Assembly (NCBI GenBank): GCA_030873995.1
Contig: GCA_030873995.1_4701.1
Source of the DNA: a phage
DNA: 45,609 bases
Reading direction: 5' to 3' (one strand)
In this document: positions 6,186-27,787 of the stretch, piece after piece
Position numbering within the stretch: position 1 is the stretch's first letter
Layout: the number at the start of each line of letters is the position of its first letter
Position numbers and translations under genes: made by a program
Notes under the pieces: model-generated
The model's database searches: none
What the model was told of the DNA's origin: nothing
Seen by the model: only the letters and a program-made list of their open reading frames with translations

Positions 6186-6926
6186 ATGCCTTTAATTCAA
6201 AATACAAGTGATGTTGGACGTATCATGGCTGAGGCTTCCTTCAATATCATTGATAGCAAGCTGGAAGCAGTTAACCTGTGTATGCGAGCTATTGGTCGTG
6301 AGGGTGTGGATTCCCTTGACTCTGGCGACTTAGATGCTGAAGATGCTAACAAGATTATTGATATTGTCTCACAACGTTTCCAATACAATAAGGGCGGTGG
6401 TTGGTGGTTTAACAGAGAACCTAACTGGTTACTTAAACCTGACACAAATGGTGAAGTGAACATGCCAAACAATTGCCTTGCTGTTCTCCAATGCTATGCT
6501 CTGGGTGAACGTAAAGTCCCTATGACTATGCGCGCAGGTAAACTGTACTCTGTTTGGAATCACACTTTCGACATGTCAAAGTATGTGAATCAGGATGGGC
6601 GTATTAGGTTGACTTTGGTAACATTGCTGCCTTTTGAGCATCTACCTGCAAGCGTAATGCAAGCCATTGCCTATCAGGCTGCCGTAGAGTTTATTGTGTC
6701 TAAAGATGCAGATAAGACTAAACTACAAGCACACCAGCAGATTGCAGCACAATTGATGATTGATGTTCAGTCAGAGCAGTCTTCTCAGAAGAGACTTAAT
6801 ATACTTGTACATAACCCCACTCAGCGCAACTTTGGCATTATGGCAGGTGGCTCTCAGAATGTACCAGCGTTCTCCTATTCACCTTATGACACTTACCCTG
6901 TAAGGCCGTGGGAGGTTGATAGATAA
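6186..6926 (+). CDS. tail tubular protein A (gp11-like)
   Basis: N-terminal block IGREGVDSLDSGDLDAEDANKII...GGGWWFN resembles the T7 gp11 N-terminus as recalled. Confidence 0.75.
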   Translation: MPLIQNTSDVGRIMAEASFNIIDSKLEAVNLCMRAIGREGVDSLDSGDLDAEDANKIIDIVSQRFQYNKGGGWWFNREPNWLLKPDTNGEVNMPNNCLAVLQCYALGERKVPMTMRAGKLYSVWNHTFDMSKYVNQDGRIRLTLVTLLPFEHLPASVMQAIAYQAAVEFIVSKDADKTKLQAHQQIAAQLMIDVQSEQSSQKRLNILVHNPTQRNFGIMAGGSQNVPAFSYSPYDTYPVRPWEVDR

Positions 6927-9331
6927 TGGAAGTACAAGGCTCTTTAGGTCGTCAGATTCAAGGTATTAGCCAACAACCAGCAGCAGTGCGGTTAGATGGT
7001 CAATGTACTGATATGGTTAATATGGTTCCAGATGTAGTCAACGGTACACAATCTCGCATGGGAAGCACACACATTGCTAGGCTTCTTGATTCTGGTGACG
7101 AAAACATGGCAACACATCATTACCGCAGAGGTGATGGTGTAGAGGAATATTTCTTCATTATGAAGAAAGGTAGCGTGCCAGAAATATTTGACAAAGAAGG
7201 TCGTAAATGCACTGTGACCTCTCAGGATGAACCTATGGCCTATCTTGCTGAGGTTGTGAACCCGAGAGAAGACGTGCAGTTCATGACTATTGCTGATGTA
7301 ACATTTATGCTTAACAGGCGTAAAGTAGTGAAAGCTCGTAGTGATAAGTCTCCAAAGGTGGGAAACAAGGCTATTGTGTTTTCTGCCTACGGGCAGTATG
7401 GCACTTCGTACACTATCTCTATTAACGGCGAGCAAGCGGCGACCTTCAAAACTCCAGATGGAAGCGACCCTAGTCATGTAGAACAGATTCGCACTGAGTA
7501 CCTAGCAACTAAGCTATATGAGAGTTTACAGACATGGAGTAAAGCGTCACAGTACACCTTGCAAAGAGAAGGCACTAGTATCTACATTGAAACTAAAGAT
7601 GGTAGTGATTTCACTATTACTACTACAGATGGGGCCAAGGGTAAGGACTTGGTTGCCATAAAGAACCGAGTGTCATCTACAGACTTACTTCCCTCAAGAG
7701 CACCAGAAGGGTACAAGGTACAGGTGTGGCCTACAGGGAGTAAACCAGAATCTCGGTATTGGCTAGAGGCTGTACCTAAAGAGGGAGGTAACTTAGTTGC
7801 TTGGCAAGAAACTATTGCAGCAGATGTGTTACTTGGCTTTGATAAAGACACTATGCCTTATATTATAGAGCGTACAGGGATTGTCGGAGGTGTGGCACAG
7901 TTTAAGATACGACATGGCGATTGGGAAGACCGTAAGGTAGGCGATGACCTGACTAACCCTATGCCTTCCTTTATTGATGAAGATGTACCACAGGCGATTG
8001 GTGGTATGTTCATGGTGCAGAACCGTCTTTGTGTCACAGCAGGAGAAGCTGTCATAGCAACTAGGACTTCTCACTTCTTTGACTTCTTCCGCTTCTCCGC
8101 AGTGTCTGAGGTTGCAACAGATCCTTTTGATATTTTCTCAGATGCAAGTGAGGTCTACCAGCTCAAACATGCAGTAACCCTAGATGGGGCAACGATATTA
8201 TTCTCAGACACATCTCAGTTCATACTTCCTGGGGATAAAGTATTAGAGAAATCTAATGTCATACTCAAGCCTGCTACAACTTTCGAAGTGGATAATAGGG
8301 TGTCACCTGTGGCAACTGGTGAATCCGTGATGTTTGCTACAAGTGAAGGTGCTTACTCTGGTGTGCGTGAGTTTTATACCGACTCTTACAGCGACACTAA
8401 GAAAGCACAGGCTGTTACTAGTCATGTTAACAAGTTGATAGAAGGTAATATAACTCATATGGTTGCTAGCACTAATATCAACAGGTTACTTGTGGTAACA
8501 GACAGGGACCCTAATATTGTCTATTGCTATGACTGGTTGTGGCAAGGGACAGATCGTGTACAATCTGCATGGCATAAGTGGGTGTGGCCTAAAGATACTT
8601 TGATTCGCTCTATGTTCTATTCCTCAGAGGTATTGTATCTCCTTGTAGAACGAGGTAATACTGGTTTGTATCTAGAGGTGATGGATATGGGTGATGCTCT
8701 TACTTATGGTTTAGTTGACAGAATTAGACTGGATAGGCAAGCAGAGTTGATCTTCACCTATGATGCTAATACAGACCAGTGGGTTTCTAATGAGTTGCCT
8801 TGGAAGCCTACTGACCCAGCCTTACTTGAGTGTGTGATAATTCAAGGGTGGCCTGCTTATATTGGTGGTTCTTTTCATTTTGAATATGATGAAGCCAGTA
8901 ATAAGCTAATTACAACTTTTGATTTATCAGAAGAAGGCACTAATGCTATAGCTGTCGTAGGGCAGTTGTATCAGCAGGAGTTTGAGCCAACACAGGTCGT
9001 TATTCGAGATAACCAAGATAGAGTGTCCTACATAGATGTGCCAGTGGTAGGCCTAGTTCACCTTAACTTGGATAAATACCCTGACTTTGAAGTTCATATC
9101 AAGAACTTAAAGAGTGGCAAATTAAGAAAGGCTTTGGCATCTAACAGGAAAGGCGGGGCACTTAATAATGTTGTTGGTTATGTCAAGCCAGAAGAGGGGT
9201 CATTCAAATTTCCACTAAGATCCCTTAGTACAGATACTGTTTATCGTATCATTGTTAACTCCCCTCATACATTCCAACTCAGGGATATTGAGTGGGAAGG
9301 TTCGTATAACCCAACTAAGAGGAGGGTATAA
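6926..9331 (+). CDS. tail tubular protein B (gp12-like)
   Basis: 801 aa, size and position as T7 gp12. Confidence 0.8.
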   Translation: MEVQGSLGRQIQGISQQPAAVRLDGQCTDMVNMVPDVVNGTQSRMGSTHIARLLDSGDENMATHHYRRGDGVEEYFFIMKKGSVPEIFDKEGRKCTVTSQDEPMAYLAEVVNPREDVQFMTIADVTFMLNRRKVVKARSDKSPKVGNKAIVFSAYGQYGTSYTISINGEQAATFKTPDGSDPSHVEQIRTEYLATKLYESLQTWSKASQYTLQREGTSIYIETKDGSDFTITTTDGAKGKDLVAIKNRVSSTDLLPSRAPEGYKVQVWPTGSKPESRYWLEAVPKEGGNLVAWQETIAADVLLGFDKDTMPYIIERTGIVGGVAQFKIRHGDWEDRKVGDDLTNPMPSFIDEDVPQAIGGMFMVQNRLCVTAGEAVIATRTSHFFDFFRFSAVSEVATDPFDIFSDASEVYQLKHAVTLDGATILFSDTSQFILPGDKVLEKSNVILKPATTFEVDNRVSPVATGESVMFATSEGAYSGVREFYTDSYSDTKKAQAVTSHVNKLIEGNITHMVASTNINRLLVVTDRDPNIVYCYDWLWQGTDRVQSAWHKWVWPKDTLIRSMFYSSEVLYLLVERGNTGLYLEVMDMGDALTYGLVDRIRLDRQAELIFTYDANTDQWVSNELPWKPTDPALLECVIIQGWPAYIGGSFHFEYDEASNKLITTFDLSEEGTNAIAVVGQLYQQEFEPTQVVIRDNQDRVSYIDVPVVGLVHLNLDKYPDFEVHIKNLKSGKLRKALASNRKGGALNNVVGYVKPEEGSFKFPLRSLSTDTVYRIIVNSPHTFQLRDIEWEGSYNPTKRRV

Positions 9332-10056
9332 TGGCAGTAATGGCAACAGTAGGATCAAGCCTAGCCAGTATGTTCTCCAGTAGTGCAGGTGCTGCGGCTG
9401 CTAGTAGTGCTGCTGGTAGTGCCGCCGCTGGGAGTGGTGGTGTGCTTGGCTCTGTCGGAAGTTTCTTAGGTGGAAGCTCTGCTGGCTTTTCTAATGCAGG
9501 TTTGTTGTCTGCTGGACTACAAGGCTTAAACTTACTAGGCGGCCTATTCGGTGGACGAGATACCGCTAAGGCTATGCAGAAAGCACAAGAAGAAGAGTGG
9601 AGACAAAGGCTAGAAGCCACACGTGAAGCCTATTCTTCTGTGGCAAATGCAGAACGGTCTGCTGCAAAGCAATATCATTCTGACTTCCTTAATAATCAAA
9701 TTTCACTGATGCAGCAACGAGCGCAAGTTGCAGTAATGGCAGGTGCTACTGGAACAGGTGGTAGCTCCATCACATCCATGCTCAATGATTTGACGGCAGA
9801 AGGCGGTCGTAATCAGTCAACCATTATAGATAATTATGAGAATCAGCAAATCAGCTTTGCCAACCAGTTGAAGTCTATTCAACGCAGTGGACAGATGCAG
9901 ATGCGAACGTTTGACAAACCTTCCGCTTTGGGTACTTTGGTGAAAGGTATACCAAGCCTTGCATCTTCTTATGTCACCGGAAGTAAAGCAGGTATGGCGC
10001 TTGGCAAGGCTATCACTGAGTCTCGTACTTATTCATCAGGAACTAGAGGAGTTTAA
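9331..10056 (+). CDS. internal virion protein (gp14-like)
   Basis: 241 aa, Gly/Ala/Ser-rich N-terminus; first of three ejection-protein genes after tail tube B. Confidence 0.55.
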   Translation: MAVMATVGSSLASMFSSSAGAAAASSAAGSAAAGSGGVLGSVGSFLGGSSAGFSNAGLLSAGLQGLNLLGGLFGGRDTAKAMQKAQEEEWRQRLEATREAYSSVANAERSAAKQYHSDFLNNQISLMQQRAQVAVMAGATGTGGSSITSMLNDLTAEGGRNQSTIIDNYENQQISFANQLKSIQRSGQMQMRTFDKPSALGTLVKGIPSLASSYVTGSKAGMALGKAITESRTYSSGTRGV

Positions 10057-12999
10057 ATGGCAATTGAACGTCAAGCTGTACAAGGTTTAGAAAGAGTACA
10101 GTCAAGGGGTGCGCCAATGCCTATGTCTTTCACACCACGACAAGTGAGTATCTCAGGGGGCGCTGATGCCTCCGGTAGTAGATTTTTGGAAGACTTAGTA
10201 AACGCCGCAAGTAGTGTGGCTGATGTCACTACTGCTATCCTTAATCAGCAAGTAGAAGACGATAAGGTTCGCCAGATGGATAGGGCTTTGTCTGGCATGA
10301 TGCCTTCTGAGGATGCCACGGTAGGCGGTGCTCGTGCTCATATGCTGGTTAGTTTACAAAATGATGTAATCGCACAGACAACTGCGCTACAAGCAGAAGC
10401 ACAGCGATTTCAAGGTAGTGACGAGGATTGGGAAAACTATGTAGTTCAATCTCGTAATGAGGTACAAAATAGGTTATGGCAAAGTTATCCAGAGCTTCGT
10501 GGTGACAAAGATTCTATGAGGCTTGTCACTAACGCGTTCATGGAGCAGCAACCTAGAATTACTGCAACTAGAGCAGAGGCTAAACTTCGTCAAGAAGAAG
10601 AAGCACGAATGCAATCTATGCAGTCTCGTATTATCATGGCTACAAGGGACGTAGCGCCAGATGCCACTGGTGCAGCTCTTATCCAGCTACAAAAAGAAGC
10701 ACTGGCGATGGGTCTTAGTAAACCTGAGTTTGATCAAATGGTTGCTAAGATTGCATCTGAAAGAGCGGCAGTAGGAGATGATAGTCTTATTCAGGGAACC
10801 AAGGCATTGGTGGATGATAAGGGTGTCTCTTTGTATGACCGTGTTGGTGCTTTGCAAACTGGAGAAATTCAAGCTAACAGAACTTGGGCTGCTCAGAATC
10901 AGGTTGCCCTCTTCGAGAAGAAAGATGCAGCTATAAAGGCATTCGATGCAGGGCAACTTACTCGCGAAGAGTTACTTCAGGTGATGCAGAATCACAATGA
11001 ATTGACTGGTGGCACTGCTTGGTCTGATAGCGAGATCAAGGCTATCTTCGATAGGCAAGCTAAGGTTAATGCAGAGAAAGCAAAGCTAGAAGATCTTATT
11101 GCACGAGGTGAATCTGGGTCGCCTTTAGGCTTACAGGACATTAGTAAGGATGACAGAAAGACATATGCTGAAGCCTTAGTTAGTACCTACACTAAGCTGG
11201 CAGAAGATGAAATTGCCCGTACTGGTGCAACGGGAGAACAGGCTGAAGCTATTCGCGGTAGGTATGAGCAGATGCGTTATCTTAAATTGGGTCAACAGCT
11301 TATTGAAGACCCGATCATTAAGGAAAGGTATTCGTCGCTTATGCAGCTATCCTCTGCCAACCTCAAGGATATGAATGTTGAACCTGAAGCACTGCAAACT
11401 ATCATGCGAGCACGTGATTCTATTCCAGAGGATGCACGTCGTGCTGTTATGGGAGACAAAGAATATGCCTTTGTTGAGAACTATGACTTAGCAACTCGCA
11501 TGGGGTATAACACAGGTCAAGCTATTGAGTTTGCACAGAATGCCTCTCGCGGCGAGAAATTACAAGGTTCTGTGCTCAAAGAACTTAATGATGATGTAGA
11601 TGGAGTAGTTAGTGACATTGCAGGAGGCAGCTGGCTCACTTTTGGTGATAACATGAGTGAAATGGGACGTGACATTATGATGGAGGAGGCAAGTACAATT
11701 GCTAGAGCAATGAAGGTTGCAGGCCATAATAATGACACTATTAAGCGTCACCTTAAATCCTACCTTACAAGCCAGTATACACAATTATCAGAAGGTTTCT
11801 TTACTCAAGGTGTTCTTGTAAAAGGAGACATTCGTACGTTAGGAGATACTATAGGAGTAAACCAAGGAGACGTCCCAATTACTCTCCGTCAGTACCTAGA
11901 TAATAACAAACAAGCCCTGCTAGATGCATCAGGTGGGTTAGAGGAAGGCGACCTATATTTTGATGTAGATGCGAAGCGCGGCCTCTTTACTATACGTGCA
12001 GGCTCTGGTCGTGTGCCTGTTACACAGGCAATGCCTTTGTCTGAAATCAAAGGGCAATCCTTGCTTAAGCAACGGTATGATGCAGAGGTTAAAGCACGTG
12101 ATGAAGGGCGTAAGAACTTTGAAGCACAACAAATGCGAATGTGGGGCGCAGGTGGCTACCAAGCACAACCACCTGCAAAGACTACAGCCAAAACTGTAGG
12201 CTCACGTGGGATTGCTGACTTCTTAATGTCACCTGCCTTTGCATCAGGCGAGAATCTACCAGCAAACTTTGAGTTCGGATATAAGAGAAATAATATGGAC
12301 TTCTACAATTATGTAGCCAAGATGGAGAATAATGCCAATGTAGGTTTTGACCGAGTAGCTGGTGTTTATACACCATACAAAGATGCACATGGTCAGTCTG
12401 TAGGGTACGGTCACTTCCTTACTACTGAAGAGAAGAAGAACGGATACATTATGATTGGTACAGAGAAAGTGCCATTCACTCCGGGACAATCTCAATTAAC
12501 ACCAGAACGAGCCATGCGCCTTCTACAGCAAGACTTGAAGAGTCATGTGCCAAGTACTTCAGGATGGGCTGTTCCCTTCGAAGAGATGCACCCAGGTGTT
12601 CAGCGTGGCCTTATGGACTTGTCCTATAATTTAGGAAAAGGCGGGATCCAGAATGCTCCTAAGGCATACGCTGCATTTAAGGCTGGCAAGTTTACTGATG
12701 GCTTCATCGAGATGCTATCTACTGCATCTACTGAAGGCAAGCGCAGCACTGGATTGTTAGTTCGTAGGGCGGAAGCTTATAACCTTGCACAGAGTGGTGG
12801 TGCTATCCCTAAGATTAGTGAAGTGGAGACACGAGCAGATGGATCTATGTATGTGAAGTTTGCAGGACAGATGTCAGAGGCTTTCGTAAATAAATCAATC
12901 TACAATCAGATTGGTAAGGATGGGTGGATGCAAGTGTATCCTCCAAAGCAAGGTGCACTTGCACCTAACACTCAGATTGGTAGAATCAAACTGAGCTAG
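10057..12999 (+). CDS. internal virion protein (gp15-like) with C-terminal T4-lysozyme-like (GH24) domain
   Basis: 980 aa; region GQSVGYGHFLTTEE...GVQRGLMDLSYNLGKGG aligns to the T4 lysozyme core as recalled. Confidence 0.7.
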   Translation: MAIERQAVQGLERVQSRGAPMPMSFTPRQVSISGGADASGSRFLEDLVNAASSVADVTTAILNQQVEDDKVRQMDRALSGMMPSEDATVGGARAHMLVSLQNDVIAQTTALQAEAQRFQGSDEDWENYVVQSRNEVQNRLWQSYPELRGDKDSMRLVTNAFMEQQPRITATRAEAKLRQEEEARMQSMQSRIIMATRDVAPDATGAALIQLQKEALAMGLSKPEFDQMVAKIASERAAVGDDSLIQGTKALVDDKGVSLYDRVGALQTGEIQANRTWAAQNQVALFEKKDAAIKAFDAGQLTREELLQVMQNHNELTGGTAWSDSEIKAIFDRQAKVNAEKAKLEDLIARGESGSPLGLQDISKDDRKTYAEALVSTYTKLAEDEIARTGATGEQAEAIRGRYEQMRYLKLGQQLIEDPIIKERYSSLMQLSSANLKDMNVEPEALQTIMRARDSIPEDARRAVMGDKEYAFVENYDLATRMGYNTGQAIEFAQNASRGEKLQGSVLKELNDDVDGVVSDIAGGSWLTFGDNMSEMGRDIMMEEASTIARAMKVAGHNNDTIKRHLKSYLTSQYTQLSEGFFTQGVLVKGDIRTLGDTIGVNQGDVPITLRQYLDNNKQALLDASGGLEEGDLYFDVDAKRGLFTIRAGSGRVPVTQAMPLSEIKGQSLLKQRYDAEVKARDEGRKNFEAQQMRMWGAGGYQAQPPAKTTAKTVGSRGIADFLMSPAFASGENLPANFEFGYKRNNMDFYNYVAKMENNANVGFDRVAGVYTPYKDAHGQSVGYGHFLTTEEKKNGYIMIGTEKVPFTPGQSQLTPERAMRLLQQDLKSHVPSTSGWAVPFEEMHPGVQRGLMDLSYNLGKGGIQNAPKAYAAFKAGKFTDGFIEMLSTASTEGKRSTGLLVRRAEAYNLAQSGGAIPKISEVETRADGSMYVKFAGQMSEAFVNKSIYNQIGKDGWMQVYPPKQGALAPNTQIGRIKLS

Positions 13000-13002
13000 T
13001 GT

Positions 13003-13048
13003 TATACTCAAGGTTTGTCTCACATGTGAGACATGCCTTTATGAATGA
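13003..13048 (+). promoter_or_regulatory. RNase III-type processing site candidate
   Basis: GTTATACTCAAGG - extended hairpin around palindrome 13019..13034 - CCTTTATGAAT; same flanks recur at 39984..40021. Confidence 0.45.
13019..13034 (+). repeat. 16-bp perfect palindrome GTCTCACATGTGAGAC (copy 1)
   Basis: Read directly; flanks extend the stem. Confidence 0.9.
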
Positions 13049-13066: not shown

Positions 13067-16000
13067 ATGGTTGATAGTATTAACCAAAATTGGGTGGCGG
13101 TGACTCAACGCAAGTTACCGCCTACCTTCTCTCAAGTTGCTGAAGCAGAGCGTAAGGCCGAAGCACAGAGAGCTAATGACAAAGTATTCCAAACAGCCAT
13201 AGAGAGTGAGTGGGCTTTGTATGGTGGACAACGTGCCTATGAACGCCACACTACAGAGTTTGCTGAACAAGAAGGTTATGAAGTACCTGAATCAACTAAG
13301 GATGAACTATCCAAGTTGTATGGGTATGAAATAGCGCAAGACATAGTCAAGAATGTGAAGTCTCCAGAAGAGTTGCAATTCCGTATGTCTAATGCTGCTG
13401 CGGATAAAGACAGAGCAGACATCTTAGCACGTAATGGTTTCACAGGTTTCAGCGCACAGATTGCTGCTGGTATTCTTGACCCTGTAGGTTGGGCGGCTTC
13501 TCTAGTAGCTGCACCTGTAGCTGGTGCTGTCAAAGTAGGTCGTCTAGGTAGGATTATCAAGACGGCTGCCTTATCTGGTGCTGAAAATGCTGCATTAGAA
13601 GCTGTGCTTGCACAAGGTGATTACCAGCGAGGTGTCGATGATGTACTGGCTGCTGCCGGGTTTGGTATGATTATGGGCGGTACTATTGGCGCTGCAACTA
13701 GGGAACGCATAGCCAGTGCTGGTTCTCGTACAGCGGCAGAGAGAGCAGAGGCTGTATTTGATGACTTGGACACCGTAGTAAAAGGTGCTGATGAGTTTGA
13801 CTCGTCTGCTGCTCGTGCTGTACGTGAGGCCATGGAGTATGACGCGTATATGGCAGCACGTAATTATGAACCACTTCGTGCAAGAGAGGTGGATGCAGAT
13901 ATGGCAATTCTATCTCACACAGACAACTTGAAAGCCAATGCGTCGGTAAGGATGAGTGCTAGTGAGAAAGGACTACTGAAGAAACAGATACGCCAACTGG
14001 AAGCAGAAGCAGCCACACTTAAGGGGAAGAAGATAGATGCTGTAGCAGAGGCTGCCGCCGCTAAGGGTGCACCTAAATCTGCTGCGGACAGATTGGATTT
14101 AGATGTTCAGAAGAAAGCACTGGCACGTAGATTCGATGAACCACTTGCTGATTTACAAGCGCGTCTTGATGAGTTGAATGCCAAGTTATCTCGTGCGAAC
14201 AATGTAGGTAAGGCTAAGGAGGAGCTTAAGAGATTCTCATCGCTGTCCCGTGAAGATCAAATAAAGGAACTAGGTTTAGACGCACCAATGCGTAAGGTGG
14301 AGATGACCCGTGCTGTACGAGATGCAGTAGCTGCAATCCGTGCCGAACGTAAGAAGACACCTACCGAGATACATGCTGAACAAGCTGCAGAAGAGGTAAT
14401 CAAGCAAAAGGCAGATGACTCTATTGGTGCTAAACGTGTTGAAGGTTCAGAGATTGCAGGCGAGCAGTTTGACTTATCTAAAAACATGGAAGAACTTATG
14501 GATGACTTGGCACGAGAAGCATATCAGTCAGAGGTGCGGCCTATTAATCTTAAGGGTCTAGGTTCAGTGTCTTCTGTGATTCTTAACTCAGAGAATCCTG
14601 TGTTCCGAGGTCTAGGTCTTCGTCTGCTTGAAAACGCTCAAGGTGGTGCATACCAAGGTAAGACAGCTTCTATCTTATCAGATGTGTATGGCAACCTTAT
14701 TCGTCATGCAGAACGTAACAGGTACAATGATGGTTTCTCTCAATTCATCAAAGATAACAACCTACGTGCGGTAGATTATCTTAACCCTGCAACGACACGG
14801 GATTTCAATAATCAGATTTATACAGCAATTGTTCGTGGCATACCAGAAGATACACCTCGTGGTGTTAAACTGGCAGCAGAAGGTATCGCTGATAAACTCA
14901 AGAAAGCACTTGAGATTCGTAAGCAAGCAGGAGAGCATGGATTCGAAGATATACAATCTGCTAAGGATTACATCCCTGTTATCTATGACGGTATCAAGGT
15001 TACTGAGGCAGTTAACAAATTGGGGAGTAGTGAGGCTGTTATTCACTTACTATCCAAAGGTTACCAGACAGGTAAGTACAAACTTGGCAAGAAAGCTGCG
15101 GATGCCCTAGCAAAAGTACAGTACATTCGTGCATCGGACTCCACCCTCTCTAGTCGTGTTGCATTCGATAGGGTGGTATCCCAGCAGCAGCAGGCTCAAT
15201 TGATTGAGGATCTGAAGAAAGCAGGGGTACCAGACCATATCATTGATAATTTCATTGAAGGTACTGAATTAGCAGAAATGGCTGAATCGGTATCCAATCG
15301 AGCTAAAGCTAGTATGGGTATTAATACGCAAGCCGAATATGGCGGTTTGAAGGTGCAGGATTTGCTTAATACAAACGTAGGGGAGCTAGCGGAGAACTAC
15401 GGCAAAGAGGCAGCGGGTGGTGCTGCATTGGCTGCTATGGGTTTCCCTACTCGCCAATCTGTGCTGAACGCAATAGATGCCGCAGAACGCGCAGGCCGCA
15501 ATATGGCGGGGTCAAATGCTAAGGCAATCAAACAGCTTAGGTCTGAGGCAGAAATGCTCAGAGATGCCGTTAAGTTAATTTACGGCAACACTATCGACGC
15601 CGACCCTAACTCTGGAATTGTCAGGGGTACTCGACGTGTCCGTGAGATTACAGGGTTGTTACGATTAGGCCAAATGGGCTTCGCTCAGATACCTGAACTG
15701 GCACGTGCAATCTCTAAGATGGGACTAGGGACTGTGCTGAAGTCTGTACCTGCCACTAAGTTCTTACGTTCGAGAGCGGCTCGTAAAGGTGGCACTGCTC
15801 AGGGTGAGTTGCTTGAACCTGAACTGCGAGAAATGGAGGAACTCTTAGGTTATATCGGGGAGGATAACTGGCTCACAGGGTGGAATGTCCGTCATGATGA
15901 GTTCGGAGAAACTGCGGATAACCTAGGTAAGCTGTCTGCTATTATTGATAACGGATTAGCTATGGGTAGTAGAATCAACACAATACTATCTGGTTTTAAA

Positions 16001-16870
16001 GCAGTACAAGGTGGCTCAGAGAAGATTATAGCTCGCTCTATCAATAAGCGACTAAAGCAACATTTGATGGGGGAGCGACAGTTACCCAAAGCAGATCTTG
16101 AAGAAGTTGGCCTAAGTGAAGATGTCATGAAGAGACTTAAGCGTCACTTTGATGATAACCCAATGTACGCTGATTACAAAGGTGAAAAAGTTCGTATGAT
16201 GAACTTTGATGCTATGGAGCCAGACCTGAGAGAGACAGTGGGTGTTGCTGTGCGAAGAATGTCAGGACGTCTTATTCAGCGTAACTTCATAGGAGATGAA
16301 GGTATCTGGATGAATAAATGGTGGGGCAAGGCATTGACCCAGTTTAAGTCATTCTCTATTGTCTCTATTGAGAAACAGCTAATCCATGATTTACGAGGAG
16401 ATAAGATTCAGGCTGCACAGATCCTTGCATGGTCTACCTTACTAGGCTATGCATCTTATGCACTACAGATGCAGATGCAAGCAATTGGTAGGGAGGACAG
16501 AGACAAGTTCTTGAGGGATAAGTTCGAGACACAGAATATCGCTATGGGTGTCTTTAATAAACTCCCACAAGTTGCAGGCTTCGGTCTTGCTGGTGATGCT
16601 TTGGCAACATTTGGCCTAATGCCAGACTCTATGATGCAAGCGCCTGGACGTATGGGGTTCCGTCAGCAAGGGTTTGGTGATTTGGTAGCAGGTGCTGGTG
16701 TAATCAGTGATACAGTTAATTTGTCACAAGCACTAGTTAAGTACGCCAACGGAGATGATGATGTCTCTACTCGGCAGTTGGTGGACAAGGTTCGTCGCCT
16801 TGTTCCTTTGGCAAATACTATTGGTGTAGGTCAGATGACTAAAGCCAGTGTAGACTTATTGGAGGATTGA
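13067..16870 (+). CDS. internal virion (core/ejection) protein, gp16-like
   Basis: 1267 aa, position and size as T7 gp16; AGGAGG RBS. Confidence 0.7.
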   Translation: MVDSINQNWVAVTQRKLPPTFSQVAEAERKAEAQRANDKVFQTAIESEWALYGGQRAYERHTTEFAEQEGYEVPESTKDELSKLYGYEIAQDIVKNVKSPEELQFRMSNAAADKDRADILARNGFTGFSAQIAAGILDPVGWAASLVAAPVAGAVKVGRLGRIIKTAALSGAENAALEAVLAQGDYQRGVDDVLAAAGFGMIMGGTIGAATRERIASAGSRTAAERAEAVFDDLDTVVKGADEFDSSAARAVREAMEYDAYMAARNYEPLRAREVDADMAILSHTDNLKANASVRMSASEKGLLKKQIRQLEAEAATLKGKKIDAVAEAAAAKGAPKSAADRLDLDVQKKALARRFDEPLADLQARLDELNAKLSRANNVGKAKEELKRFSSLSREDQIKELGLDAPMRKVEMTRAVRDAVAAIRAERKKTPTEIHAEQAAEEVIKQKADDSIGAKRVEGSEIAGEQFDLSKNMEELMDDLAREAYQSEVRPINLKGLGSVSSVILNSENPVFRGLGLRLLENAQGGAYQGKTASILSDVYGNLIRHAERNRYNDGFSQFIKDNNLRAVDYLNPATTRDFNNQIYTAIVRGIPEDTPRGVKLAAEGIADKLKKALEIRKQAGEHGFEDIQSAKDYIPVIYDGIKVTEAVNKLGSSEAVIHLLSKGYQTGKYKLGKKAADALAKVQYIRASDSTLSSRVAFDRVVSQQQQAQLIEDLKKAGVPDHIIDNFIEGTELAEMAESVSNRAKASMGINTQAEYGGLKVQDLLNTNVGELAENYGKEAAGGAALAAMGFPTRQSVLNAIDAAERAGRNMAGSNAKAIKQLRSEAEMLRDAVKLIYGNTIDADPNSGIVRGTRRVREITGLLRLGQMGFAQIPELARAISKMGLGTVLKSVPATKFLRSRAARKGGTAQGELLEPELREMEELLGYIGEDNWLTGWNVRHDEFGETADNLGKLSAIIDNGLAMGSRINTILSGFKAVQGGSEKIIARSINKRLKQHLMGERQLPKADLEEVGLSEDVMKRLKRHFDDNPMYADYKGEKVRMMNFDAMEPDLRETVGVAVRRMSGRLIQRNFIGDEGIWMNKWWGKALTQFKSFSIVSIEKQLIHDLRGDKIQAAQILAWSTLLGYASYALQMQMQAIGREDRDKFLRDKFETQNIAMGVFNKLPQVAGFGLAGDALATFGLMPDSMMQAPGRMGFRQQGFGDLVAGAGVISDTVNLSQALVKYANGDDDVSTRQLVDKVRRLVPLANTIGVGQMTKASVDLLED

Positions 16871-17838: not shown

Positions 17839-17991
17839 ATGATTAACTCCGAACTGGTAGATAATGGTGTGAAGCTTGCGCCACCTGCACTCGTATCAGG
17901 TGGGTACTTCCTCGGTATCAGTTGGGATAACTGGCTCGTAATTATGACCCTTATTTACACAGTAATGCAAAATGGGTTGGTTTATTTATGA
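17839..17991 (+). CDS. holin, T7 gp17.5-like
   Basis: 50 aa, one TM segment; GGYFLGISWDNWLVIMTLIYTVMQNG resembles the T7 gp17.5 core as recalled; AAGGAGGTGGG RBS. Confidence 0.6.
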   Translation: MINSELVDNGVKLAPPALVSGGYFLGISWDNWLVIMTLIYTVMQNGLVYL

Positions 17992-18027: not shown

Positions 18028-18459
18028 ATGTACTCAGAAGTTGAAAGAGCAGGATACATCATAAGAGAAGATGGTGTTATCTTGAGCAAGAAGGGACAAC
18101 CGATGGTTGGTGCTATTCGTGAAAGAGGATACCGCACAGTAACATTAAGGATAGATAATAAATCCAAGACTTATAAAGTACATAGGTTGACTGCATGGAA
18201 GCATGTGCCGAACCCTCATAACTATAAGGTTGTTAACCATAAAGACCGCAACCCATCTAATTGCCATAAAGATAACCTAGAGTGGTGCACTCAACAGGAA
18301 AACACTATACATGCACACTATGGTTGTCTTGACATACAAGATAAAATAGATGAAGCCAAAGCATTAAGAAGCCAAGGCTGGTCTTATCCTAAAATCGGTA
18401 AATACTTTGGGTTAGACCATAAGACTGTTTGGTATTGGATTAATGGGAGAAGAACTTGA
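18028..18459 (+). CDS. HNH homing endonuclease
   Basis: 143 aa; motif HKDRNPSNCHKDNLEWCTQQEN; inserted between holin and terminase small subunit. Confidence 0.75.
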   Translation: MYSEVERAGYIIREDGVILSKKGQPMVGAIRERGYRTVTLRIDNKSKTYKVHRLTAWKHVPNPHNYKVVNHKDRNPSNCHKDNLEWCTQQENTIHAHYGCLDIQDKIDEAKALRSQGWSYPKIGKYFGLDHKTVWYWINGRRT

Positions 18460-21394: not shown

Positions 21395-21739
21395 ATGCTT
21401 AACAAATACTTCAAGCGTAAAGAGTTCGCTTGCCGTTGTGGGTGCGGTACATCCACTGTTGATGCTGAATTACTACAGGTAGTCACAGATGTGCGTGAGC
21501 ACTTTGGTTCTCCTGTAGTTATCACTTCGGGGCATCGCTGTGCTAAGCACAATGCTAATGTAGGAGGAGCTAAGAACTCCATGCATCTTACTGGTAAGGC
21601 TGCTGACATTAAGGTACGAGGCATCTTACCTTCTGATGTACATAAGTATCTTACTGATAAGTACCAAGGCAAGTATGGTATTGGTAAGTATACCTCCTTT
21701 ACTCATATTGATGTACGTAACGGGTGTGCACGATGGTAG
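21395..21739 (+). CDS. endolysin, peptidase M15 family
   Basis: 114 aa; zinc-peptidase signature SGHRCAKHN...SMHLTGKAADI; start trimmed from ORF 21341 to the RBS-supported ATG. Confidence 0.8.
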   Translation: MLNKYFKRKEFACRCGCGTSTVDAELLQVVTDVREHFGSPVVITSGHRCAKHNANVGGAKNSMHLTGKAADIKVRGILPSDVHKYLTDKYQGKYGIGKYTSFTHIDVRNGCARW

Positions 21740-24398: not shown

Positions 24399-26582
24399 AT
24401 GCTTCAAAGATTAGGGGCAATGTTTGTTCGGTACAAAAATAAAGTAGGTAATGCTATCGAGCGTACACTACAAAGTAAATTACAGGATGTAGTAAGTGTA
24501 AAGGATTATGGCGCTATTGGTGATGGAGTATATCGTTCACTTGGTGCTAAATTTACCACGTTAAGTATGGCACAAGTAGTATACCCGCATGCGGAAAGTT
24601 TAACTCAATCGCAAGATTGGGCGGCTATTCAGGCTGCACTTAATTCTCACTCAAAAGTGTACATTCCAGCAGGTAAGTACATGCTATCTGATACCATTGA
24701 GATGCGCGGCGGTCAAACTCTGCAAGGTGACGGTATTGATTCTTGGGTTGCAGGTTATGCTGGGTTTGTAAAAGATAATCAAGGCACTCACCTCATAATG
24801 GTGGGAGATGGAAATAAGAAGTATACATTAGATCATGTATCTAACTTCGATGTAGAAGGTGGTGTCATAGACAACCCAGCGAAGAGTGATGCTTATACTG
24901 CCACTGCACCTTCCCCTAATTACTCATTTACTAACTTCACTAACGCTAACGCCTCTGGTGCACAACGTGCTACATTGAAACCTTTCAGCGTAGCATTACG
25001 TTGCACAGGTCACGGTGGTGTTTATCTTCGTGACTTCCGTATTGTGCCTAATCACAGAGGGCAAGAAGGTTATAAGGATGAGTTGTCAACTGCATTAGGG
25101 GACGCATGGGATGTAGGTATTTGGCTGGAGAATACATCTGACTCAGTGTTATCTTCTGTGCAAGCAGTTGGTTACTGGCGTATTGCAGGTGTTATGAAGA
25201 CTTGTATTCCACAAGAGGGTTCCTTTGTTGGTGGAGAGCGTGATAGGATATACAATTGCACATTACAAGGTTATCGTGGTTTCTTAGCACGTTCGCATGA
25301 TACTTACCAAGTAGAAGAAGTATCAGGTAACACTGTATCGATTAAGTGGTCTGCATCTCACACTTTCGAACCTTCTGGTAAAGTTCGTATCCAAGGGAAA
25401 GACCGTAGTTATACTAGCCTGTCTGTATCTGGTGACAAATTAGTCTTCAATGGTATTGACGATGTATCAGGTATTAATACCAATAGCTATGTGAGAGTTT
25501 CAGGGTCTTCATTCGGAATGTCTGCTACTCAACTAAATAACACATACATCGCTGCATTAAACCATCATGCTCGCTTGCCAGCAACCTCTAATCTTTTAGA
25601 TAATAGGTTTTCTACTTCGGCAGCTTGCTATGAAGTTGCAGGTGAACCAATTCGTGCCATAAAATTATCTAACTGTACTGTCATTACTTGGGATGACATC
25701 TTAGGTATGACTGGTGGTATTCGGGATTTCCAGACGACAGATACTTACTTCGAGTCTCAGCCTTTCCGTACTTCTGTGCAAGGCTTGGCAAGCACCACAC
25801 AACCTGCTGGTTCTCGCATGATTGCACTTCGTGGACGTCAAGGTTCTAAAACTACAGGATATCAAGCTATCGGTTGTACTTATGGGCCAGGTGTAGACTT
25901 AAGTCCTCGTTATGAAAGCGATGTATCTCGTTACACAACTTCAGGTGGTATGTTCAATCCAAGAGAAGATTTGAACACAACTAAGCAGTTACCAATGAGG
26001 CAAGACGCTACTGAGCTATCTTCTACTTCTGACTTATTCCTTACACATGCTGTAGGGCGGAAGGCCTATGTTGGCGCTACCTCTGGTGATGCAACGCTTC
26101 AATCTAGAACTGGATCATTGAATATCCAATCAGGACTTCGTGTACGGATTGGTGGCACTGATGGTAGTGGTTGGTATATTGCTGACAGTGCTAAGTTGAC
26201 ACCTACTGCTGACAATGCAAGGGCTTGTGGACAGCCTAATGGACGATGGACTGTTGTCTATGCTGTTAATGGTACAATCCAGACTTCTGATGGTAGATTC
26301 AAGGAAATCCTTGAGATTGAACAGGCAGAACTTGATGCTGGTCTTGAATTATCAGCAAACCTAATTAAGTATCGGTGGAATGGGGAAGATAAAATTCACT
26401 TTGGTTGCATAGCACAAGAAGTGATGTTAATACTGGAGAAACATGGCCTAGACCCATTACAATATGATATGGTTCAGTATGATGAGGAGGCAGACATCTT
26501 TGGGGTAAACTATGCTGAACTCAACAGCTTCTGTATTGCAGCATTATCGAGGAAGTTAAATGCCATTAATAAAATCAGTTAA
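24399..26582 (+). CDS. tailspike 2 with C-terminal intramolecular chaperone (peptidase S74-like) domain
   Basis: 727 aa; VKDYGAIGDG signature; C-terminal SDGRFKE...HFGCIAQE; AAGGAGG RBS. Confidence 0.75.
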   Translation: MLQRLGAMFVRYKNKVGNAIERTLQSKLQDVVSVKDYGAIGDGVYRSLGAKFTTLSMAQVVYPHAESLTQSQDWAAIQAALNSHSKVYIPAGKYMLSDTIEMRGGQTLQGDGIDSWVAGYAGFVKDNQGTHLIMVGDGNKKYTLDHVSNFDVEGGVIDNPAKSDAYTATAPSPNYSFTNFTNANASGAQRATLKPFSVALRCTGHGGVYLRDFRIVPNHRGQEGYKDELSTALGDAWDVGIWLENTSDSVLSSVQAVGYWRIAGVMKTCIPQEGSFVGGERDRIYNCTLQGYRGFLARSHDTYQVEEVSGNTVSIKWSASHTFEPSGKVRIQGKDRSYTSLSVSGDKLVFNGIDDVSGINTNSYVRVSGSSFGMSATQLNNTYIAALNHHARLPATSNLLDNRFSTSAACYEVAGEPIRAIKLSNCTVITWDDILGMTGGIRDFQTTDTYFESQPFRTSVQGLASTTQPAGSRMIALRGRQGSKTTGYQAIGCTYGPGVDLSPRYESDVSRYTTSGGMFNPREDLNTTKQLPMRQDATELSSTSDLFLTHAVGRKAYVGATSGDATLQSRTGSLNIQSGLRVRIGGTDGSGWYIADSAKLTPTADNARACGQPNGRWTVVYAVNGTIQTSDGRFKEILEIEQAELDAGLELSANLIKYRWNGEDKIHFGCIAQEVMLILEKHGLDPLQYDMVQYDEEADIFGVNYAELNSFCIAALSRKLNAINKIS

Positions 26583-26999: not shown

Positions 27000-27686
27000 C
27001 CAAAGGTGGTCACAAAGTAACCAAAGTCAAAATTTTGATGTAGGCGTGTGTGAGGTGTCTCGCCCTCGCCCTCGCCGGGTTGTCCCCATAGGGTGGCCTG
27101 AGGGAATCCGTCTTCGACGGGCAGGGCTGATGTACTCCTTGCCTAGTACAAGGGAGGCGGAGTGAACGCCTGGGACGGCCTAGGGAATGGCTTAGTGGTG
27201 GACAAGGTGATTACCTTAGTGAAGCCTCTTAGTGCATTCCTTAGGCCATTCAGGGCGTTTATGAGGTATTGACAGGGTGGATGGGTGTGGGCTATCTGTT
27301 CGTTTCGCTACGCTTCACTCACTGCTCCTCACTTCGTTCGTCGCTGCGGTAGCCTGATGTGTACCTTAGGTTATTACTTGATGGATAGCTTAGGTTAGCC
27401 TTAGTGGATTACCTTAGTTAAAGCCTTAGTGCTTCACTTAGTATCAGCTTAGTAGTGTACCTTAGTCAGACTTAGTGTCTTCTCTTAGTGATTGCATAGC
27501 TAAAGCTATAAGATGCAAATAGGTCGCGGTCGGTAGACCGCTAAAGAAAGAGAATGGTAATAAGATGCAGTAGGAGGAACACCAGAAACCTAGCCAACCT
27601 AAGCTATCCTAGCTCTATATCTATTGCTTTTCCTTAGTCTAACACGTTAGACAACCTATCTTATTCTTAGTGATGGTAACTTAGTG

Positions 27687-27715
27687 TTGACAAGATAATC
27701 TTAGTGTAATACTAT
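27687..27715 (+). promoter_or_regulatory. sigma70-type early promoter candidate
   Basis: TTGACA, 17-bp spacer, TACTAT; first strong host-type promoter after the repeat-rich terminal region. Confidence 0.55.
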
Positions 27716-27787
27716 GCATCACGTAGGCGGTGCTGAGGCACCTAGTAGCCAGCTAGTAAGGCATACGAAGAGACTAGCGCTTACATT

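Follow-up and report, generated by a model that had tools for sequence, protein, structure and literature searches.

A T7 gp15-like ejection protein with a C-terminal GH24 lysozyme domain in an SP6/K1-5-type podophage

The peptidoglycan-cutting module of the ejection apparatus is carried in Autographivirales either on the N-terminus of gp16 or on the C-terminus of gp15, a rule that is already found in reviews and has been quantified in a 2026 preprint. The second arrangement is the one considered here. In a 45,609-nucleotide stretch of phage DNA (NCBI GenBank assembly GCA_030873995.1, contig GCA_030873995.1_4701.1; the whole stretch is referred to as the window), the open reading frame (ORF) at 10057..12999 encodes an internal (ejection) protein with a T7 gp15-like structure and a C-terminal T4-lysozyme-type domain, an arrangement that is already documented. 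Taken as one explanation, the gp15-like identity, the GH24 domain and a role of the virion protein in ejection are given a probability of about 0.9.

The closest described proteins are those of SP6 and K1-5. Latka et al. 2017 list two virion-associated lysozymes here, SP6 Gp36 (NP_853596.1, 107 kDa), an internal head protein that contributes to the extensible tail, and the K1-5 protein YP_654136.1 (109 kDa) (PMC5380687). In its entries for these two phages, that review cites Moak & Molineux 2004 and zymograms of SP6 and K1-5 virions (PMC5380687). The passage on SP6 Gp36 in Bardina et al. 2016, citing Dobbins 2004 and Scholl 2004, describes its C-terminus as resembling lysozymes (PMC4837284). 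According to Swanson et al. 2022, the lysozyme activity that T7 has on gp16 resides in K1E/K1-5 on the gp15-like homologues (gp35) (PMC8954989). The phiKMV gp36 protein has an active, thermostable C-terminal lysozyme domain (PMC5380687), and cryo-electron microscopy places a lysozyme domain on the gp15-like protein of PhiM1 (OEP; PMC11440229) and of the phiKMV-like phage Ar-KM (gp42; bioRxiv 10.64898/2026.05.18.726046). Of the 127 Autographivirales genomes counted in the 2026 Ar-KM preprint, 31 have the lysozyme as the C-terminal part of the tunnel protein (bioRxiv 10.64898/2026.05.18.726046). More generally, Hardies et al. 2016 noted that tail lysozyme domains are found variably on internal virion proteins (PMC4819975).

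The window represents an SP6/K1-5-type podophage genome (Autographiviridae, Molineuxvirinae) in circularly permuted form. The segment 10057..12999 (+) is a single ORF with an ATG start, a ribosome binding site (GAGGAG) ~6 nt 5' of the ATG, and a TAG stop at 12997-12999. It encodes 980 amino acids (aa) with a predicted mass of 107.7 kDa. It shares 99.7% DNA identity with gp41 of Escherichia phage LL11, and the two proteins differ at 6 aa. LL11 gp41 is labelled "lysozyme domain-containing protein" in RefSeq, the near-identical gene in the GenBank LL11 record (MH729818) is labelled "putative soluble endolysin", and several database records read "baseplate hub subunit / lysozyme". The phrog_4290 profile matches the whole product with 1457 bits. 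The parts of the gene are as follows:

10057..12999 (+), whole ORF: gp15-like ejection (periplasmic-tunnel) protein with C-terminal lysozyme, orthologue of LL11 gp41, SP6 gp36 and K1-5 gp38
10228..12126 (+), residues ~58-690: all-helical gp15-like body (helices H58-H690 of the full-length model)
12121..12279 (+), residues ~689-741: predicted flexible linker between helical body and lysozyme domain
12280..12789 (+), residues 742-911: GH24 (T4-lysozyme-type) muramidase domain, from PF00959, the homologue profile, the structural model and Foldseek
12325..12327 (+), Glu757 codon: predicted catalytic acid, equivalent of T4 lysozyme Glu11, at the end of helix 742-758
12382..12384 (+), Asp776 codon: predicted equivalent of T4 lysozyme Asp20
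12397..12399 (+), Ser781 codon: residue at the position of T4 lysozyme Thr26
12814..12990 (+), residues 920-978: C-terminal beta-rich module

A first-pass annotation, made from the letters alone, had placed a GH24-type lysozyme in the C-terminal third of the protein. The family and the C-terminal location both held, on the evidence of PF00959, the profile and the model; the extent is smaller, namely the last quarter, made up of residues 742-911 and a 69-residue tail. A domain search, which the annotation had proposed as the check, agreed with it once the region was isolated. Residues 738-980 match PF00959 Phage_lysozyme with E=1.9e-8 and 35.1 bits (gathering cut-off 22.3), covering profile positions 8-124 of 125. 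When the full-length ORF product was scanned against Pfam and NCBIfam, no family was matched and the GH24 domain was missed. Full-length phiKMV gp36 likewise has no PF00959 match in a Pfam hmmscan. This is an annotation pitfall: PF00959 is missed in long fusion proteins, though the isolated domain passes the gathering threshold.

Profile and structure comparisons gave the same assignment. A single-sequence phmmer search of the PDB returned only a marginal match (8b2s, E=0.34). A word-indexed homologue search gave only five close fragments, and an exhaustive search of representative proteins was used instead; among 1.84 billion of these, 210 relatives were found, many of them proteins of 860-990 aa in which the domain is C-terminal, and others short and stand-alone. 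The profile built from the homologues scores T4 lysozyme at 90 bits. Searched against the PDB, an 85-sequence profile retrieves GH24 entries with E=2e-31 to 1e-21, including 6et6 (2e-31), 8b2s, a "GH24 family muramidase" (2e-25), the lysozyme domain of T4 gp5 (1pdl and 1k28, ~3e-23) and T4 lysozyme (~1e-22). The AlphaFold model of residues 725-980 has a predicted local distance difference test (pLDDT) score of 91.4. In a Foldseek search of the PDB with this model, the significant matches are all GH24 lysozymes (probability 1.00, template modelling (TM) score on the target 0.57-0.75), among them 4zpu, 3hde, 8hp8, 8b2s, 9kbq and T4 lysozyme. Its matches in BFVD are phage lysozymes and endolysins, led by the orthologue of Erwinia phage S2 (TM 0.89). 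Membership of the C-terminal domain in GH24, by sequence and by predicted fold, is established by these results, and residues 742-911 are the sole GH24 domain in the window. The N-acetylmuramidase activity of the domain is presumed from the literature on its orthologues.

The catalytic positions were read from alignments based on hidden Markov models (HMMs), and the predicted triad is Glu757/Asp776/Ser781. Glu757 stands at the C-terminal end of helix 742-758, just as Glu11 ends helix A of T4 lysozyme. It aligns with the Glu of the 6et6 motif FEGT and of the phiKMV gp36 motif FEAY, if an insertion of 8-10 residues (here NANVGFDRVA) is allowed for. The insertion comes right after Glu757 and T4 lysozyme is without it; Gly763 within it is conserved. 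The Glu757 column holds Glu in 83 of the 86 homologues that cover it and is invariant in the full-length ones (28/28). Asp776 aligns with Asp20 of T4 lysozyme and Asp762 of phiKMV gp36, and is conserved in SP6 gp36 and K1-5 gp38. Ser781 aligns with Thr26 of T4 lysozyme and Ser767 of phiKMV gp36, and Gly785-His786 with Gly30-His31 of T4 lysozyme. At the aligned positions the SP6 gp36 and K1-5 gp38 domains have Glu, Asn, Asp, Ser, Gly and His, as here. The first-pass annotation had named the absence of a Glu/Asp/Thr triad as what would tell against its claim. Glu and Asp are present, Thr is replaced by Ser, and the claim is not refuted.

The rest of the protein resembles T7 gp15. A full-length AlphaFold2 model, built from an alignment of 28 full-length homologues, has a mean pLDDT of 81.2. 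In it, residues 1-57 are predicted to be disordered, an all-helical body follows, and pLDDT falls to 41-67 over residues ~680-740, where the linker is placed. When the model was compared with the PDB by Foldseek, T7 gp15 chains ranked first, the top five having E=2e-9 to 1e-4. These include 7k5c_A (from the T7 ejectosome's periplasmic tunnel; E=2e-9), 9jyy_G (6e-9) and 6yt5_A (5e-8); 7eyb_A and 9vvp_K were also matched, as was 6ysz_A with a TM on the target of 0.62 over ~300 columns. The probability is 1.00 for all of the T7 gp15 matches, and helical repeat proteins unrelated to them rank far below. Pfam is without a gp15 model and T7 gp15 itself matches no family. IVP-C proteins are extremely diverged (PMC4819975).

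Synteny points in the same direction. The ORF lies between a T7_gp14 gene and a phrog_342 gene and therefore occupies the gene-15 position of a three-gene ejection module. The stop codon of the gp14-like gene abuts its ATG, and a nozzle gene lies upstream of the gp14-like gene:

6926-9331, nozzle protein (Pfam Phage_nozzle PF25675, E=8e-176)
9331..10056 (+), gp14-like internal virion (outer-membrane) ejection protein, 241 aa (Pfam PF24072 T7_gp14, E=3.9e-26; phrog_805 internal virion protein, E=3e-48)
13067..16870 (+), gp16-like inner-membrane ejection protein, 1267 aa (phrog_342, E=5.7e-249)

The three ejection proteins sum to 2488 aa, inside the total of 2378 +/- 162 aa reported across Autographivirales (bioRxiv 10.64898/2026.05.18.726046). 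The ORF, its synteny and the predicted gp15-like fold are established here, and the first-pass wording "gp15-like" was borne out by the flanking genes, the all-helical body and the top-ranking T7 gp15 chains.

T7 likewise has an ejection module of three proteins, encoded in the same order, and the helical gp15 fold is common to both. The two differ in the peptidoglycan-cleaving domain: T7 gp16 has an N-terminal SLT transglycosylase of the GH23 type, and the gp15-like protein here has a C-terminal muramidase of family GH24. The first-pass annotation had drawn this same contrast with T7, correctly. In a control scan, T7 gp16 matched Pfam SLT over residues 15-127 (E=1.7e-31); the gp16-like protein of the window has no Pfam match to SLT (PF01464), scanned either as the whole 1267 aa or as its first 278 residues. 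It covers positions 205-1227 only of the phrog_342 profile, and by BLASTP its residue 77 aligns with residue 274 of T7 gp16, an offset of ~197 residues, so that it is without roughly the first 200 residues of T7 gp16. With SLT on the gp16 N-terminus in T7 and GH24 on the gp15-like C-terminus here, the cleaving module therefore sits at the same gene 15/16 junction, on opposite sides of the stop codon, and is drawn from different glycosidase families.

The following sequence of events is modelled on the orthologues and the literature, from which all of its components are drawn: packaging into the virion, the muralytic activity itself, and the order of steps. The gene would encode the middle one of three internal-core ejection proteins, the counterpart of the T7 gp15 periplasmic tunnel protein. 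It would be packaged inside the capsid core, leave through the tail at infection after the gp14-like protein, and refold in the periplasm as a subunit of a trans-envelope DNA conduit. The GH24 domain, held on its flexible linker, would cut the N-acetylmuramic acid-N-acetylglucosamine (MurNAc-beta-1,4-GlcNAc) bonds of the peptidoglycan locally, which would let the conduit and the gp16-like protein reach the inner membrane. The cleaving job of the T7 gp16 SLT domain would thus be supplied in cis by the gp15-like protein, and lysis at the end of infection would be left to a different enzyme, a Peptidase_M15 endolysin. The first-pass annotation had called the activity "needed for DNA ejection", which is stronger than the T7 precedent; the requirement for the T7 gp16 transglycosylase is conditional (PMC8954989), and any need for the muramidase is probably conditional too. 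By analogy, the activity may be essential only where the peptidoglycan is highly cross-linked.

Several points weigh against this explanation. BLASTP of the protein against T7 gp15 gives no match (best E=2.4), and the global TM of the model to T7 gp15 is only 0.2-0.3. Such a low global score is expected for a flexible, multi-segment helical protein whose drastic conformational changes are known. Homology of the N-terminal body to T7 gp15 is accordingly proposed on predicted structure and synteny. In the lysozyme domain, Glu11 of T4 lysozyme falls outside the local HMM alignment owing to the insertion after Glu757, and the equivalence of Glu757 is therefore transitive, by way of 6et6 and phiKMV gp36. 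At the Asp20 position, the wider family has Ser in 69 and Asp in 62 of 137 homologues. The Thr26 residue is absent, as it is from phiKMV gp36, SP6 gp36 and K1-5 gp38, all with Ser; by sequence the change is conservative, the column holding Thr in 77 and Ser in 33 of 137 homologues. Judged from the alignment, this lysozyme-domain subfamily does not keep the classical triad strictly. In a separate observation, the large subgroup with Ser at the Asp20 position retains the Glu-Asn motif.

These substitutions could be taken to mean that the domain is mainly structural, serving in peptidoglycan binding or as a DNA-spooling groove in the capsid with little or no catalytic role, and the fact that T7 needs its gp16 transglycosylase under some conditions only (PMC8954989) would agree with that. 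Such a role is nevertheless judged very unlikely. The near-complete retention of Glu757 described above speaks against it. Identical Glu, Asp and Ser are present in SP6 gp36 and K1-5 gp38, which are listed with virion muralytic activity (PMC5380687), and phiKMV gp36C, with the same YKDxxGxSVGxGH motif, is reported to be an active lysozyme (PMC5380687). The database labels raise two other possibilities. GH24 is the classic endolysin fold, and the name "putative soluble endolysin" in MH729818 implies an enzyme that acts from within at the end of infection. Hardly any credence is given to this, since the product is a 980 aa protein with a gp15-like helical body of ~690 aa, its gene, flanked by the gp14-like and gp16-like ones, belongs to the internal-virion operon and is a long way from those for lysis, and its orthologues are described as internal head proteins (PMC5380687). 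Moreover, a dedicated Peptidase_M15_3 endolysin gene adjoins spanin-type genes elsewhere in the genome. A baseplate hub or tail lysozyme like T4 gp5 is what other labels suggest, and the gp5 structures are indeed among the profile matches; yet the likeness is confined to the GH24 domain, the other ~700 residues match T7 gp15 instead of the OB-fold or beta-helix of gp5, and an Autographiviridae podovirus is without a baseplate. The chance that this label is right is practically nil. The endolysin, baseplate-hub and purely structural readings were thus rejected on the gp15-like body, the synteny and the conserved Glu/Asp/Ser, and the preferred explanation remains an ejection protein of the gp15 type that carries its own muramidase.

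The separate endolysin is established from the sequence by a strong family match and is located outside the ejection module, beyond the holin gene:

17839-17991, T7-type holin
21395..21739 (+), endolysin for lysis from within, Peptidase_M15_3, 114 aa (Pfam PF08291, E=7.4e-33)

The endolysin corresponds to LL11 gp49, which is annotated as an endolysin. A lysozyme-only product made separately from the 10057-12999 gene was also looked for, and no internal SP6-type promoter was found; scans for sigma-70 promoters and terminators were at or below chance. No SP6-type promoter match occurs between 4869 and 22314, and the ejection module therefore lies inside a long late transcription unit. Over the window there are eight scattered SP6-type promoter matches.

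The orthologues SP6 gp36 (NP_853596.1), K1-5 gp38 (YP_654136.1) / K1E gp35 and LL11 gp41 have the same gene position and a length of 978-982 aa. SP6 gp36 is ~81% identical in aa sequence, with 79.3% over residues 1-740 and 86.2% over 741-980; K1-5 gp38 is 38% identical in the N-terminal part and 59% in the C-terminal part. The nearest phage, LL11, is placed in the K1-5 genus Vectrevirus, yet the ORF is of the SP6 type. The presence of an SP6-type gene in a relative of the K1-5 genus points, as far as sequence comparison goes, to a mosaic ancestry of the ejection module.

More distant relatives share the domain but little else. The phiKMV gp36 protein is an internal virion protein in the gp15 position with a C-terminal T4-lysozyme-like domain (gp36C) and is only ~18-21% identical. 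It has the same YKDxxGxSVGxGH hairpin motif and Ser at the Thr26 position, and a BLASTP comparison aligns the lysozyme hairpin region only (E=0.001). T4 lysozyme (gene e) and the lysozyme domain of T4 gp5 have the fold and the GH24 family in common with the domain, and both the catalytic Glu and the Asp are present. Identity is ~15-20%. The domain differs in having Ser for Thr26, extra residues inserted behind the catalytic Glu, and a beta-hairpin where T4 lysozyme has part of its N-lobe helix region; in addition, it is fused to a 740-residue ejection protein.

Three elements go beyond the phiKMV-type domain: the insertion after Glu757 (an EN...G motif), an extra N-lobe beta-hairpin at residues 797-806, and the tail at 920-978. 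All three are well predicted and conserved in the SP6-type orthologues; phiKMV gp36 is without the insertion, without the hairpin and without the beta-rich tail of ~60 residues. The tail module consists of strands at residues 920-925, 931-935, 957-961 and 975-978 with pLDDT >90. It is kept in SP6-type orthologues and in some shorter proteins, and homologues align through it. A Pfam scan of isolated residues 738-980 gave no family over this module. The tail might be a functional adaptor, either an anchor to peptidoglycan or a substitute in cis for the missing part of T7 gp16 that docks the enzyme or clamps the tunnel, a suggestion that is doubtful. The part of T7 gp16 in question comprises the lytic transglycosylase domain and the "molecular tape".

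On the whole, the first-pass observation is confirmed, its interpretation is supported, and the feature itself is already known. The discovery value is little, the gene being a near-identical copy of an annotated RefSeq gene whose orthologues are already listed as virion lysozymes. The value for annotation is greater in that the product should be named an internal virion/ejection protein with a C-terminal GH24 lysozyme, not an "endolysin" or a "baseplate hub". The case also shows that a GH24 domain can escape standard HMM scans of full-length proteins.

Other features of the genome were observed in passing. The 67-nt gap between the gp15-like stop and the gp16-like start contains a perfect 16-nt palindrome, GTCTCACATGTGAGAC, at 13017-13032, which could be an RNA hairpin or a processing site. 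The whole window is ~90-96% identical to LL11, with several segments replaced. The ends of the linear LL11 genome map at ~27644-27784, from which it follows that the window is a circular permutation. The holin is 50 aa long; that of LL11 has 64 aa, and its charged C-terminal tail is missing here. The segment 17934-18445 has no LL11 counterpart, and an HNH_3 homing-endonuclease ORF (18028-18459, +; Pfam E=5.8e-8) is inserted there between the holin and small terminase genes. In the tailspike region, 24413-26550 gave no BLASTN match to LL11, which suggests, from sequence comparison, a swapped host-range (tailspike) module.

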